This document shows positions 4,598 through 8,111 of a DNA stretch of 64,000 nucleotides, piece after piece. The stretch is from the IMG/VR virus record IMGVR_UViG_3300025018_000148, positions 7,094 to 71,093 of that record; one strand, given 5' to 3'. How positions within the stretch are numbered: position 1 is the first letter of the stretch; every line of letters begins with the position of its first letter. The notes below the pieces were generated by a model that was not told where the DNA came from, did no database searches, and saw only the letters and a program-made list of their open reading frames with translations. This DNA is from a virus. Its lineage: Duplodnaviria > Caudoviricetes. The translations under genes were made by a program, and so were the position numbers.

Positions 4598-5905
4598 ATG
4601 GAACTGACCATACACCCACCTATCGACAAACTGGACGAGTATGTCCTGCAACAGCTAGAGGAGTCTGATCTCTCCGAGGAACAGAGAGCCTTGGCTCGGG
4701 AGATCATCACCACCCGCGACAACTTCCTCGTCACCGGGAATGCGGGGGTGGGTAAGAGCCACCTCCTCAATTGGCTTCGCCGGTTCATCAACCTCTCGGT
4801 GACTGCGTCTACCGGGATCGCTGCGATCCAGATCAAGGGGAGCACGATTCATGCGTTCGCCGGTCTCGGTATCGGCAAGCAGACCGCAGCGCAGATCGTG
4901 AACAGCCTTGCGGAGAAGGCGTTCAAATACAACGACCGCACCCTTCGTCGCCTTCAAGAATGTGAGCGTCTTGTCATCGACGAGGTCTCCATGCTGGATG
5001 CCGACATGCTCGATCTGCTGGAGCAGGTGCTCATGCTGGCTCGGGGCCGGGAAGAATCCTTCGGAGGCGTCCAGATGATCTTCATCGGGGACTTCCTGCA
5101 ACTGCCCCCTGTCACGAAGAAGGGACCCCCGAAGTTCGCGTTCACGGCGGAGTCGTGGCAGAATGCCGGGGTCAACGTCCGCCTGCTCACCAAGGTTTTT
5201 CGGCAACAGGACGAACACTTTTCCGCGATCCTCAACAAGATTCGTTTCGGAGAGACGGACGACGAGGTGTTCCAGTTCTTGAAGGCGCGGCACAAGGCAG
5301 TGGACACCGACCCGGCGCATCCTCCTTGCATCCTTCACACCCACAATGCCGGGTGTGAGGAGAAGAATTTGACCGAACTCGCCCGCCTGCCGGGGGAGGA
5401 AGTCATCCTCGAAGCGACCGAGTCGAGCAAGCATCCGAACTTCGCCAGTCAGATTGACAAAGAATGTTTGGCTCCTCAAAAGCTGCACCTCAAACTCGGA
5501 GCACGGGTCATGCTTCTCGCGAACTACAACCTGTCTCGGGGTCTTGCGAACGGGTCCCTCGGGGTGGTGCAGCAGATCTCTACGACGGAGGTCGAGGTCC
5601 TGTTCGACAACGGGGAGACCTGCAATGTCATCGAGTCCGATTACGAACTCATCCGTGGGGACGAAGTCGTCGCCACCCGGAAGCAGTTTCCTCTGCGCCT
5701 TGCGTGGGCGATCACGATCCACAAGAGTCAGGGGATGACCATCCCCAAGGTCGAGGCGCACCTCGCCGGGTGCTTCGCCAAGGGACAGTCCTACGTGGCG
5801 CTCTCGCGGGCCAAGACTGCGGAGGGTCTGTTCCTTCGGGGTGGCAGCGCCAACATCGAGGCGCACCCCAAAGCGGTTAAATTCTACCAAGAGCACTGCC
5901 GATGA
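4598..5905 (+). CDS. Pif1/RecD-like SF1B DNA helicase
   Basis: GNAGVGKS Walker A, ASTGIAA, IDEVSM, GDFLQLPPV, VFRQ, QFPLRLAWAITIHKSQG, YVALSR. Confidence 0.92.
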   Translation: MELTIHPPIDKLDEYVLQQLEESDLSEEQRALAREIITTRDNFLVTGNAGVGKSHLLNWLRRFINLSVTASTGIAAIQIKGSTIHAFAGLGIGKQTAAQIVNSLAEKAFKYNDRTLRRLQECERLVIDEVSMLDADMLDLLEQVLMLARGREESFGGVQMIFIGDFLQLPPVTKKGPPKFAFTAESWQNAGVNVRLLTKVFRQQDEHFSAILNKIRFGETDDEVFQFLKARHKAVDTDPAHPPCILHTHNAGCEEKNLTELARLPGEEVILEATESSKHPNFASQIDKECLAPQKLHLKLGARVMLLANYNLSRGLANGSLGVVQQISTTEVEVLFDNGETCNVIESDYELIRGDEVVATRKQFPLRLAWAITIHKSQGMTIPKVEAHLAGCFAKGQSYVALSRAKTAEGLFLRGGSANIEAHPKAVKFYQEHCR

Positions 5906-6126
5906 TCGCAGTGTCCCGGAGAGACCTTCGCACTCGGCAGGGGCGGCGAGAGGAGATCCTCGAACAAATCCAACAGCACGGAGGGTTCTCGATTTTTTGG
6001 ATCGCGGATAACCGGGTGCGAGCGAGCGTGGCTCAGAAGATGCAAGACTCCGGGGAGATCGTGACCGATACCAAGACCTGCGGTTTCCCGTGGATTAAAG
6101 TGACGCTTGCAACCCGAACTAAATGA
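5902..6126 (+). CDS. Hypothetical protein
   Basis: ATGA-coupled to the helicase. Confidence 0.6.
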   Translation: MIAVSRRDLRTRQGRREEILEQIQQHGGFSIFWIADNRVRASVAQKMQDSGEIVTDTKTCGFPWIKVTLATRTK

Positions 6127-6326
6127 GACCCCTTTCCATCCGACTTCGAAGACTCTGGTATGCTTGGTTCGCAAGACGCGATTACGGGAGAGAGCTTTCC
6201 CGGAGAGCAGAAGTCGAACAAGAGTTGTGGAACGTATACCATGGGAAGCGGGAAACTTTCACCAAAGAAGAGTGCCGGAAGTTGGCACTTAAACTCGGAG
6301 TCCCTGAACGACTTCGGGGCAGATAA
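6123..6326 (+). CDS. Hypothetical protein
   Basis: ATGA-coupled 67-aa ORF. Confidence 0.55.
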   Translation: MRPLSIRLRRLWYAWFARRDYGRELSRRAEVEQELWNVYHGKRETFTKEECRKLALKLGVPERLRGR

Positions 6327-6368
6327 ACTTTCTCAGCAGTCGTTGAGAACAACCCAAAATAGTATATT

Positions 6369-6998
6369 ATGCAAACTGAAATCCAGTCCGGCAGTCCCGG
6401 ACAACACCCCATCACGCGAGTTGATGCCCCCGGCAAAGGCGGCGCGTCTCACGCTTACGTCATTCTCGGGCTCGCCTTGGTGAGTCAGAACCCCTCCTAC
6501 GACCTTCTCCCCCTGCAATTCCAGCCGCAGCGCCGGGGCATCGGGCTCCTCTTTCAACAGGGGGCACCGGGGGGTAGCGAGGACGACCCGCAGTCGAATG
6601 GGATTCATAGCGAGGATCTCCTTGCCATCCTGATTGACCGGCACGAGGGCTTCGCCCAAGGTCCGTTCAACTGTCCCGAGAACGACGAGGTGGTGGCGCA
6701 TCTCAAGGCGGCTCTCGCCCTGCTCGATTCCCGCCGTGCCCGTCGCCAGCAGGCAGGGGTCTTGGGTCAGCAGGTCGCCGATCCCCGACCGGCAGGGGAA
6801 GCTCCTACCCCGGCAGTCGATGACTGGCGGGTCGGCGACTTTCTCAAGTATGCGGGTTCCGAGTATGAGATCGCGGAAAAACCCTCTGAGGGTTTCGTCG
6901 GGATCTTTGATGAGCGTCCGCATTCCGACCACATCGATTTCGTCAAGATTGACAACGTCGTCTTCTCTCGCGTGGGGGAGCCCGAAGGGAGCTCTTGA
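6369..6998 (+). CDS. tad1: Tad1-like (Thoeris anti-defence) signal-sponge domain with ~75-aa C-terminal extension
   Basis: GKGGASHAYVI...LFQQG...NGIHSEDLLAILIDRHEGFAQGPFNCPEN...HLKAALALLDSRRARRQQAGVLG follows the Tad1 pattern GPGGAxHxY..FQxG..GV.xxDLL.I..DRL..FQ.GPF..REN..A..H.E.AL.....R...R....V.G as recalled. Confidence 0.78.
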   Translation: MQTEIQSGSPGQHPITRVDAPGKGGASHAYVILGLALVSQNPSYDLLPLQFQPQRRGIGLLFQQGAPGGSEDDPQSNGIHSEDLLAILIDRHEGFAQGPFNCPENDEVVAHLKAALALLDSRRARRQQAGVLGQQVADPRPAGEAPTPAVDDWRVGDFLKYAGSEYEIAEKPSEGFVGIFDERPHSDHIDFVKIDNVVFSRVGEPEGSS

Positions 6999-7390
6999 CC
7001 GATTCCGGGGAGGGCTCCAGCCCTTCCAGCGAAGAATCCTCGACTGGTTCGCCGACCCCGGCTCCCCTCGATTCCTCTTCCTCCACGGACCCCGTCGAGA
7101 CCTCACCTTCGATCTCGAACACGTCCGATGGAAGTTCCGAAACGAGCGAGAGCCCGACCCAGACGACTGGGAATCCTCCGGTCTCGGATACCTCACTCGA
7201 CTCTTCTTCGGGGAGCACGGAGCCCGCGAATACCGGAAGCGGCAACTCGCCCGTCGAGCCCCCTCTGGCTGTCGAGGAGATGACGACAAAGGAACTCTAT
7301 GACGAAGCGGTCAGCCGGGACATTCCCGGTCGCTCGTCCATGAGCAAGGAAGAGCTTCAAACGGCAGTGACCAAGGCGCGTAAAGCGTAA
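6995..7390 (+). CDS. Ser/Thr/Pro-rich disordered protein with C-terminal Rho-termination-factor N-terminal-like (Rho_N) domain
   Basis: TTGA overlap with the tad1 stop; C-terminus MTTKELYDEAVSRDIPGRSSMSKEELQTAV is the Rho_N-like motif. Confidence 0.65.
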   Translation: MTDSGEGSSPSSEESSTGSPTPAPLDSSSSTDPVETSPSISNTSDGSSETSESPTQTTGNPPVSDTSLDSSSGSTEPANTGSGNSPVEPPLAVEEMTTKELYDEAVSRDIPGRSSMSKEELQTAVTKARKA

Positions 7391-7415
7391 CTGCCCGCCC
7401 CAGCCCCGCACGAAG

Positions 7416-7456
7416 GAGGCTCTGCTGGTTTCGACCGGCAGAGCCTCTATTCTTTC
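7416..7456 (+). terminator. Intrinsic terminator where the + and - blocks converge
   Basis: gaggctctgctggt-TTCG-accggcagagcctc followed by tattctttt. Confidence 0.75.
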
Positions 7457-8061
7457 CCGGCGTCCTTGCTCAGCCAACAGTGGGCGGGGTAGTCGTGAGT
7501 GGGGTCCACGACCTCCTTGAGGATCTCGTCCGGGAGGCAGACTTTGAGCTTCAGGACGCAGCCACATACCTTGCAGTTCCGGAGTTCCTTCTCCCGGTGA
7601 ACCTTGGCATCCCGGTCGAGGAACTCAGCGAGCCACCGTAGGACGCCCTGACAGCCGTAGCAGCCCTTCACGTCCACGTTCAGGGGGCAGGCGGCGCAGA
7701 TGTCCGCCCGAGCCCGTATCGTCGCAGCAGGAGCCACGGAGAAGCCTTTCTTGACCACCCACGCCCGAACTGTCCGGAAGAAGCGCAGGAGATCCACGAT
7801 CCGGATACGGCGCTCCTCGGGGGTCTTGACTCCCGGCTCCCGGCAGAAGCGTTCCTCAATCTCGGGAATCGAACAGAGTTCCAGTTGAACCTCCTCCCAC
7901 CATCCGGAGGAGAGGTCGAAGCCATTGGCTCTGCGATGCTGGTAGATTCGGGACTTGAGATCGGCAGGAGTCAGGGCTCGAATGAGGAACCCCGACTCCT
8001 GCTGGGTGTAGGTCCAACCTCCCGGAGGAGTGGTGCTGACATCTGCGAGAATCATGGACAT
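7447..8061 (-). CDS. Cys-rich (multiple CxxC) hypothetical protein
   Basis: ICAACPLN, CYGC, CKVCGCVLKLKVC, HCW; start refined to ATG at 8061. Confidence 0.75.
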   Translation of the reverse strand: MSMILADVSTTPPGGWTYTQQESGFLIRALTPADLKSRIYQHRRANGFDLSSGWWEEVQLELCSIPEIEERFCREPGVKTPEERRIRIVDLLRFFRTVRAWVVKKGFSVAPAATIRARADICAACPLNVDVKGCYGCQGVLRWLAEFLDRDAKVHREKELRNCKVCGCVLKLKVCLPDEILKEVVDPTHDYPAHCWLSKDAGKE

Positions 8062-8100
8062 AAAAAAGGGAGCCGGGGCGCATGGCGTCACCCCGGCTCC
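8062..8100 (-). terminator. Intrinsic terminator
   Basis: Minus strand GGAGCCGGGG-loop-CCCCGGCTCC-CTTTTTT immediately downstream of the 8414-8112 gene. Confidence 0.75.
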
Positions 8101-8111
8101 CACCGAGCGGG

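Follow-up and report, generated by a model that had tools for sequence, protein, structure and literature searches.

A Tad1-family protein with a C-terminal extension, apparently shortened by a two-nucleotide insertion, in an environmental tailed phage

The stretch of DNA considered here (hereafter the window) comprises 64,000 nucleotides (nt), positions 7,094 to 71,093 of the IMG/VR virus record IMGVR_UViG_3300025018_000148 (Duplodnaviria; Caudoviricetes), which is 71,093 bp long and is rated complete by CheckV. Its open reading frame (ORF) at positions 6369..6998 encodes a protein of 209 amino acids (aa) in which a domain of the Tad1 family is followed by a C-terminal extension; the gene is continued, one base back, by a second ORF (6995-7390) that would have been part of the same protein in an ancestral form. 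Phages counter Thoeris and the cyclic oligonucleotide-based antiphage signalling system (CBASS) with Tad1 sponges, which have been studied in depth and have thousands of homologues. The ORF closes a plus-strand block made up of a shortened capsid paralogue, a helicase of the PIF1/Dda-like type, two small ORFs and then the Tad1 gene itself, and this block is convergent with the virion block, which includes a 3293-aa protein. Alignment of N-termini indicates that the ATG start is common to three extended homologues (P0001, P0002 and P0003). The leader of this ATG is G-poor and without a Shine-Dalgarno motif, as are those of other well-supported genes of the phage. Gene starts across the phage (372, 3773, 4598, 6369 and others) have G-poor, A/C/T-rich leaders that lack the motif, a pattern that is of help in judging which start codons are real.

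A first-pass annotation, made by reading the sequence without database searches, had recognized the Tad1 motif string in residues ~15-135, and this assignment holds. In a phmmer search against all PDB sequences, residues 14-134 align with residues 16-122 of CbTad1 from a Clostridium botulinum prophage (7uav and 8kbe-h; E value 7e-9), and CmTad1 (8kbb) is matched with an E value of 6e-5. The ORF also matches PHROG 2428 (E value 2e-15). Among 1.84 billion cluster representatives, 1372 score as relatives at an E value of 1e-3 or below, and the profile built from the 150 best relatives recovers CbTad1 (E value 4.7e-39), gp184/Tad1 of phage phiKZ (PDB: 8Y6V chain I, residues 55-227; E value 1.4e-34) and CmTad1 (E value 2.5e-30). 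No Acb2 chain was present among the PDB sequence matches, the family-profile matches or the Foldseek matches.

The predicted fold leads to the same family. The AlphaFold2 model computed with the alignment of 150 relatives has a predicted local distance difference test (pLDDT) score of 82-97 for residues 1-140. All 20 Foldseek matches in the PDB with an E value of 0.001 or below are Tad1 (7uaw_A, E value 3.4e-9; template modelling score, TMt, up to 0.82), and the best structure matches in BFVD are Acb2/Tad1 hairpin proteins. Two of the checks proposed in the first-pass annotation, a profile search and a structure comparison, thus return a match, and sequence and predicted fold both identify the ORF product as a true Tad1. 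For two copies of residues 1-140, the model has an interface score (ipSAE) of 0.85, compared with 0.00 for the best of three controls; at least 96% of the contacts are in common between model runs, and the pLDDT of the partners is at least 82. Of 30 proteins whose solved structures are homo-pairs, 20 attain the mark applied to this score, as does 1 of 23 with single-chain structures. Since the dimer of CbTad1 has already been solved, the result for the window protein may reflect likeness only and is not proof of a dimer.

The nearest Tad1-domain relatives in named genomes belong to Gemmataceae and other Planctomycetota, with 41-44% identity in one search and 35-42% for loci L003, L005, L009, L006, L020 and L023. 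Linkers rich in Ser, Thr and Pro (S/T/P) and a weak usage of Shine-Dalgarno motifs are common in Planctomycetota. Together these features provide a weak hint that the host belongs to this phylum. A tblastn search against cultured phages gave only six partial matches, in Agrobacterium/Rhizobium phages, and is uninformative for this clade. Searches for related loci with P0001 in viral and metagenome sequences, and with P0002 in viral sequences, returned nothing.

In CbTad1, glycocyclic ADP-ribose (gcADPR) and the cyclic dinucleotide 2'3'-cyclic GMP-AMP (cGAMP) share a single pocket at the dimer interface, which is formed by F82, N92, R109 and R113 and corresponds to F100, N110, R127 and R131 in SBS Tad1; the F82A/N92A and R109A/R113A changes abolish binding of both gcADPR and cGAMP, and the C-terminal residues 116-122 act as a lid over the ligand (bioRxiv 10.1101/2023.11.15.567273). 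Cyclic trinucleotides are bound at the three-fold interface of the CbTad1 hexamer via R90 and T97, which also help to form the hexamer (bioRxiv 10.1101/2023.11.15.567273). The native numbering of CbTad1 used here is the position in the 123-residue chain plus one, as checked on the PDB alignment. In the window protein, the corresponding quartet F95, N105, R122 and R126 has the same +10/+17/+4 spacing as in CbTad1 and SBS Tad1, and the four columns are kept in 143-149 of the 150 nearest relatives. Residues 130-134 carry the lid motif, GVLGQ, but the chain runs on beyond it. From this alignment we infer that the pocket for gcADPR and dinucleotides is retained. At the positions of R90 and T97 the protein has P103 and A110; binding of cyclic trinucleotides has thus probably been lost, and the hexamer is in doubt. 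In the R90 column, 8 of the 150 nearest relatives have Arg, 19 have Pro and 32 have Glu, and in the T97 column 16 have Thr. Because the CbTad1 residues are rare among these relatives, the hexamer/trinucleotide site is not a defining feature of the wider Tad1 family.

The first-pass annotation had gone further and proposed, from three departures from the Tad1 motif string and the extra tail, that ligand specificity might be altered or a function added. The departures are real when CbTad1 is the reference, but they are unremarkable in the family. Before the FQ.G motif there are 10 residues more than in CbTad1; the segment in question is 31 residues long, at the 86th percentile of the relatives, whose median is 25. 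The change of RE to PE in the PEN motif is P103, which is not in the gcADPR pocket and occurs in more of the nearest relatives than Arg does. The change of Arg to Ala before GVLG (A129) is likewise ordinary, with Ala in 32 of 150. What survives of the proposal is the predicted loss of trinucleotide binding through the replacement of R90 and T97, a state that is common among the nearest relatives; the quartet for gcADPR and cyclic dinucleotides is intact. In addition, specificity could be tuned by two features that are rarer among the relatives, namely A96 and a long acidic loop after FQQG.

Beyond the lid the protein continues for 74 residues, first as a hinge rich in Pro and then as an acidic module (pI 4.4; 16 Asp or Glu as compared with 7 Lys or Arg). 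The description of this region in the first-pass annotation as an extra C-terminal domain was correct as far as it went, but was incomplete, in that the ancestral chain ran on into a linker and a helix-extension-helix (HeH) end. The sole match to the extension is P0001, in a local phmmer search, in a region-restricted word search of 5.8 billion proteins and, effectively, in the atlas as well. Pfam applied to the module alone gave nothing below an E value of 0.1 (best Jag_N, 0.12-0.18), and in the atlas search the best score, 0.75, was within the noise range. Two AlphaFold2 runs gave pLDDT values of 36-54 and 33-46 for the module, i.e., no confident fold, and the suggestion that it is SH3-like remains a guess. 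At the same position P0002 and P0003 have a module that cannot be aligned with it; the module of P0002 has a weak match to KOW6 (E value 0.006). The probability from hhalign of the window/P0001 module against the P0002/P0003 module was 0.2% with very shallow profiles, so that homology is neither shown nor excluded.

The substitutions in the extension are informative on its status. Compared with a relative of ~90% identity in sequencing run X4, the listed changes in the extension affect 8 synonymous and 4 non-synonymous codons, and by this pattern the extension is a real coding domain and is under purifying selection. Between the window protein and P0001, however, the module differs at 12 of 55 positions, as compared with 2 of 138 in the Tad1 domain and 3 of 131 in the tail (module against flanks, 5 of 269; Fisher p 6e-7). 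A compensated frameshift was considered as the source of the divergent hinge, and was rejected because the P0001 peptide is absent from the other frames.

The gene is also interrupted relative to its homologues. P0001 is a protein of 341 aa, with 88% identity and 100% coverage, which contains the products of both the 6369..6998 ORF and the next ORF in one frame. At the junction, P0001 reads ...GEPAGS-LTDSGEG..., while the window reads ...GEPEGSS followed by a stop codon, with LTDSGEG... resuming one base back. P0002 (296 aa) and P0003 (321 aa) are each encoded by one long ORF with an S/T/P-rich tail. As P0001-P0003 are all contiguous, the unbroken gene is taken as the ancestral form. The segment at 6945-7014, 70 nt long in the window, measures 68 nt in the relative in run X4. 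From X1, an aquifer metagenome and the probable source run, comes a Logan contig with a depth of 17 that is identical to the window without gaps. Runs X2 and X6 contain only the 5' part in a small share, and no inference on habitat or junction was drawn from them.

Downstream of the junction the reading frame has kept the marks of a coding sequence. The tail ORF and the P0001 tail share 98% identity. Substitutions number 11 synonymous and 12 non-synonymous when read in the tail frame, but 4/17 and 4/16 when read in either of the others, a pattern which points to the tail frame as the coding one. Its end has a match to Pfam Rho_N (PF07498; E value 1.5e-4) whose 22.1 bits lie below the 24.9-bit cut-off, and the AlphaFold2 model of P0001 has helices at residues 308-317 and 328-340 (pLDDT 69-84). 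We conclude from these comparisons that a recent 2-nt insertion truncated the protein to the Tad1 domain plus the module, and orphaned the linker-HeH part, which is most likely no longer made.

Alternatively, the full protein of ~340 aa might still be produced, either because the two extra bases are an artefact of the assembly or of its consensus, or because a -1 ribosomal shift at the junction yields both short and long isoforms. The near identity of the tail to that of P0001, in frame but for 2 nt, the fact that synonymous changes are most numerous in its frame, and a terminator-like hairpin that stands after 7390 and not after 6998 are all in keeping with this explanation, and the overlap of TGA and TTG (TTGA) could allow coupled re-initiation. 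Nevertheless, the X1 contig, which was built independently, agrees with the window base for base. A programmed frameshift was rejected in that no X XXY YYZ slippery site exists at AGC TCT TGA and the downstream RNA fold is not unusual (z -0.81); such a shift is also not conserved, P0001 being contiguous. The bases ahead of the TTG at 6995 are rich in G, whereas real starts in this phage follow leaders poor in G. On balance we give little credence to continued synthesis of the long form. The coordinates of the features are collected in Table 1.

Table 1. Positions of the features of the Tad1-like gene and its orphaned continuation in the window
Feature	Position	Strand	Description
209-aa ORF	6369..6998	+	Tad1 domain plus C-terminal module; TGA stop apparently made by a 2-nt insertion
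Tad1 domain, residues 1-135	6369..6773	+	N-terminal beta-sheet, two-helix hairpin (81-97, 103-128), lid GVLGQ (130-134)
Lengthened acidic loop after FQQG, residues 65-77, 'GAPGGSEDDPQSN'	6561..6599	+	Corresponds to the CbTad1 beta4-alpha1 loop that closes over gcADPR
Pocket quartet	6651..6746	+	F95 (6651-6653), N105 (6681-6683), R122 (6732-6734), R126 (6744-6746)
Trinucleotide-site positions	6675..6698	+	P103 (6675-6677) and A110 (6696-6698) at CbTad1 R90 and T97 (binding of the cyclic trinucleotide cA3, hexamer contacts)
C-terminal extension, residues 136-209	6774..6995	+	Pro-rich hinge (136-152); acidic, beta-rich module (~153-207)
Frameshift junction AGC TCT TGA	6990..6998	+	Two extra bases (CT/TC to CTCT, in AGCTCTTGA) relative to P0001; TGA overlaps TTG of the next frame
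Orphaned continuation, part 1	6995..7264	+	Acidic S/T/P-rich low-complexity linker; 60% S/T/P, no Lys or Arg over 90 residues
Orphaned continuation, part 2	7265..7390	+	Helix-extension-helix (Rho_N/SAP-like) end, with stop codon
Terminator-like hairpin	7415..7448	+	15-bp stem, then T-rich run; after the tail ORF, between convergent gene blocks; from a consensus scan only

Extended Tad1 proteins are uncommon in one sample and frequent in another. Among 78 IMG/VR loci found with the family patterns, 72 ORFs end exactly 4 residues after the lid and a single one has a tail of at least 20 residues. Of the 150 top-scoring representatives of clusters made at 50% identity, a set that over-weights rare forms, 38 have C-terminal extensions of at least 50 residues and ~34 have N-terminal ones. 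These extensions are diverse, and almost all are without a Pfam family. In the literature we found no paper on the C-terminal Tad1 architecture described here.

Taken as a whole, the locus probably encodes a Thoeris-type signal sponge that acts as a Tad1 dimer or oligomer and carries a lineage-specific appendage, part of which has been lost in this phage. In the proposed mechanism, the small phage protein would form intertwined dimers, and possibly higher oligomers, and the dimer would sequester a host nucleotide immune signal in the interface pocket lined by F95, N105, R122 and R126, over which the GVLGQ lid would close. The likeliest ligands would be the gcADPR isomers made by the Toll/interleukin-1 receptor (TIR) proteins of type I Thoeris (3'cADPR / 1''-3' gcADPR), possibly along with some cyclic dinucleotides, while cyclic trinucleotides would probably not be bound. 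In the ancestral chain of ~340 aa the lid would have been followed by the hinge, the small acidic beta-rich module, the long acidic S/T/P-rich linker and the helix-extension-helix end. The insertion would end translation after the module, leaving the 209-aa product.

Several observations weigh against this interpretation, in whole or in part. The identity of the ligand rests on four conserved residues. A96 occupies the position of CbTad1 Q83, where Gln is found in 139 of the 150 nearest relatives. The loop after FQQG has 11 residues between the conserved Gly and Asn, as compared with 7 in 106 of 149 relatives (96th percentile), and is acidic, without an Arg equivalent to CbTad1 R57; affinity or specificity may therefore differ from those of CbTad1. 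Moreover, a canonical Tad1 ends four residues past the lid, and a chain running on from the lid might hinder its closure. The extended relative P0003 keeps the motifs of the Tad1 fold but is without the R126 equivalent and the lid motif, and parts of the extended clade may, judging from such sequences, have drifted from sponge function, with some members no longer binding a ligand. Support for the 2-nt insertion comes from contigs only and not from raw reads. Finally, a local Pfam scan of the 209-aa ORF found 0 families, which is weak evidence: at an E value of 0.01 or below, the local model PF24729.2 (Acb2/Tad1 hairpin) recovers no more than 1 of 38 and 1 of 34 clear members of the family, and P0005 and P0006, for which a precomputed PF24729 annotation exists, escape the local scan as well. 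Since clear members are missed, the empty result is uninformative, and negative Pfam results for the Acb2/Tad1 family are not to be trusted.

Some of the same observations would be explained if the gene were decaying, with the frameshift as the first step of its loss and a 209-aa product that has ceased to function as a sponge. The frameshift relative to all three extended homologues, the replacement of a nearly invariant Gln by A96, and the state of P0003 could all be seen in this way. However, the Tad1 domain is complete and nearly identical to that of P0001, its four pocket residues and lid are intact, and A96 is found in the unbroken P0001 also. Furthermore, a stand-alone Tad1 of ~120-140 aa is the functional norm, so that loss of the tail need not affect sponge activity. 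We thus regard decay as quite unlikely.

A different possibility concerns the appendage, and is compatible with the sponge interpretation favored above. By analogy with phiKZ gp184, the module, the HeH end or both might be a device for delivery or localization that anchors the Tad1 domain in the virion or on phage DNA, so that it is at hand from the earliest stage of infection. Motifs of the HeH/Rho_N type are associated with nucleic acids, and the Tad1 gene adjoins the virion gene block. In phiKZ, gp184 is reported to be wedged in the capsid by an extra N-terminal region, and its sponge part to be injected once the head protease has released it (bioRxiv 10.1101/2025.11.23.690004; PMC13282480; PMC11297242). 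The capsid-structure paper treated gp184 as a minor capsid protein (PMC11297242), while later papers name it Tad1 and have it injected after cleavage. The recovery of gp184 by the family profile is in favor of the analogy. On the other hand, the extension of the window protein is C-terminal and has no sequence relation to the gp184 N-terminus, a second copy of the HeH motif was not found in the phage, and the HeH part is cut off here, so that its role must be dispensable in this phage. A role of the appendage in delivery or localization is thus improbable as it stands.

A broader speculation can be built on the same material. The ancestral protein of ~340 aa might have been a tethered sponge, in which the lid was wired to a fast-evolving acidic module, a polyanionic S/T/P linker and a DNA-binding HeH end for placement on DNA or the virion; alternatively, the module might be a second, undescribed anti-defence unit. 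We consider this an unlikely scenario. If it were true, the placement would serve delivery at the first moment of infection, and the split would represent a natural domain deletion in which the tail is dispensable in some hosts. The second of these options on its own, a module that acts as another sponge or inhibits a host protein and is joined to Tad1 in the manner of the Tad2-Acb4 and Sequestin fusions, is also compatible with a sponge function of the Tad1 domain and would fit both the fast divergence of a module under purifying selection and the non-alignable modules of P0002 and P0003, as at an arms-race interface, but it is very unlikely given that the module is strongly acidic, unlike the nucleotide-binding pockets of sponges, and has neither relatives besides P0001 nor a confident fold.

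The neighborhood of the gene was also inspected. The upstream helicase (4598-5905, plus strand) matches Pfam PIF1 (E value 2e-32) and PHROG 325 (E value 8e-65). It is followed by two small orphan ORFs (5902-6126 and 6123-6326), chained to it by ATGA overlaps and located upstream of the Tad1-like gene. A sigma-70-like match, TTGAGA-16-TATTAT (10/12), occurs at 6343-6370 on the plus strand and is the sole such site in 1.9 kb, compared with 0.2 expected. It was ruled out as the driver of the Tad1 ORF because the site ends on the start codon of this ORF. Directly downstream of the plus-strand block and convergent with the Tad1-like gene is an ORF of 218 aa (7447-8103, minus strand) whose Cys-rich product has several CxxC-type pairs (e.g., 'CAACPLN...GCYGCQG...CKVCGC'). 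It has no Pfam match, and its match to PHROG 13558 is weak (E value 2e-4).

One more member of the Tad1 family is in itself ordinary. Nevertheless, a natural Tad1 in which the gcADPR/dinucleotide pocket appears to be kept, while the two residues of the trinucleotide site are both replaced, would provide a test case for the separability of the two sites. In one published survey substitutions of the trinucleotide residues were reported in only ~6% of homologues, in contrast with their common occurrence among the environmental relatives sampled here. The C-terminal architecture is undescribed and is joined right at the ligand lid, with a middle module whose divergence far exceeds that of its flanks. 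The natural split that removes the linker-HeH part supplies ready-made constructs of 135, 209 and 341 aa for probing the role of the appendage. As phiKZ packages and injects its Tad1 by way of an extra region, the appendages of sponges may often be concerned with delivery or localization, and this locus offers a further place to test the idea.

Comparison with known systems places the protein beside the characterized Tad1s. It shares their fold, as seen with CbTad1 (7UAV/7UAW/8SMD/8KBE-H), CmTad1 (8KBB-D) and SBSphiJ7 Tad1 (TMt 0.77-0.82), as well as the F/N/R/R quartet with its spacing, the G-V-x-G lid motif, a dimer (here a model) and a phage origin. It differs from CbTad1 in having Pro and Ala at R90 and T97, Ala at Q83 and a longer acidic beta4-alpha1 loop, and, from a reading of the alignment, in having 'AL' in place of the hexamer-contact 'MW'. 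In addition, its chain extends 74 residues (~205 in the ancestral form) past the point at which 72 of the 78 IMG/VR homologues stop. Like the window protein, phiKZ gp184 (PDB: 8Y6V chain I) combines a Tad1 domain with an extra region that has a non-sponge role in that phage, although there the extension is N-terminal and capsid-anchoring. Acb2, which shares the PF24729 'Acb2/Tad1 hairpin', has in common with the window protein the two-helix hairpin (residues ~76-134); it is, however, a helical protein of ~90 aa without an N-terminal beta-sheet (7UQ2/8H39), while the window protein has a beta-sheet that aligns with that of Tad1. In the fused sponges, i.e., Tad2-Acb4 and the fusions of Tad2 or Acb4 with Sequestin (PF21825), a sponge and a second small module are likewise present in one polypeptide, and such fusions have been described and have led to a further family of sponges (bioRxiv 10.1101/2025.07.12.664507). 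The module of the window protein is acidic and has no Pfam match to those families. In toto, these comparisons indicate that the protein departs only modestly from a counter-defence protein already known and does not represent a new kind of system.

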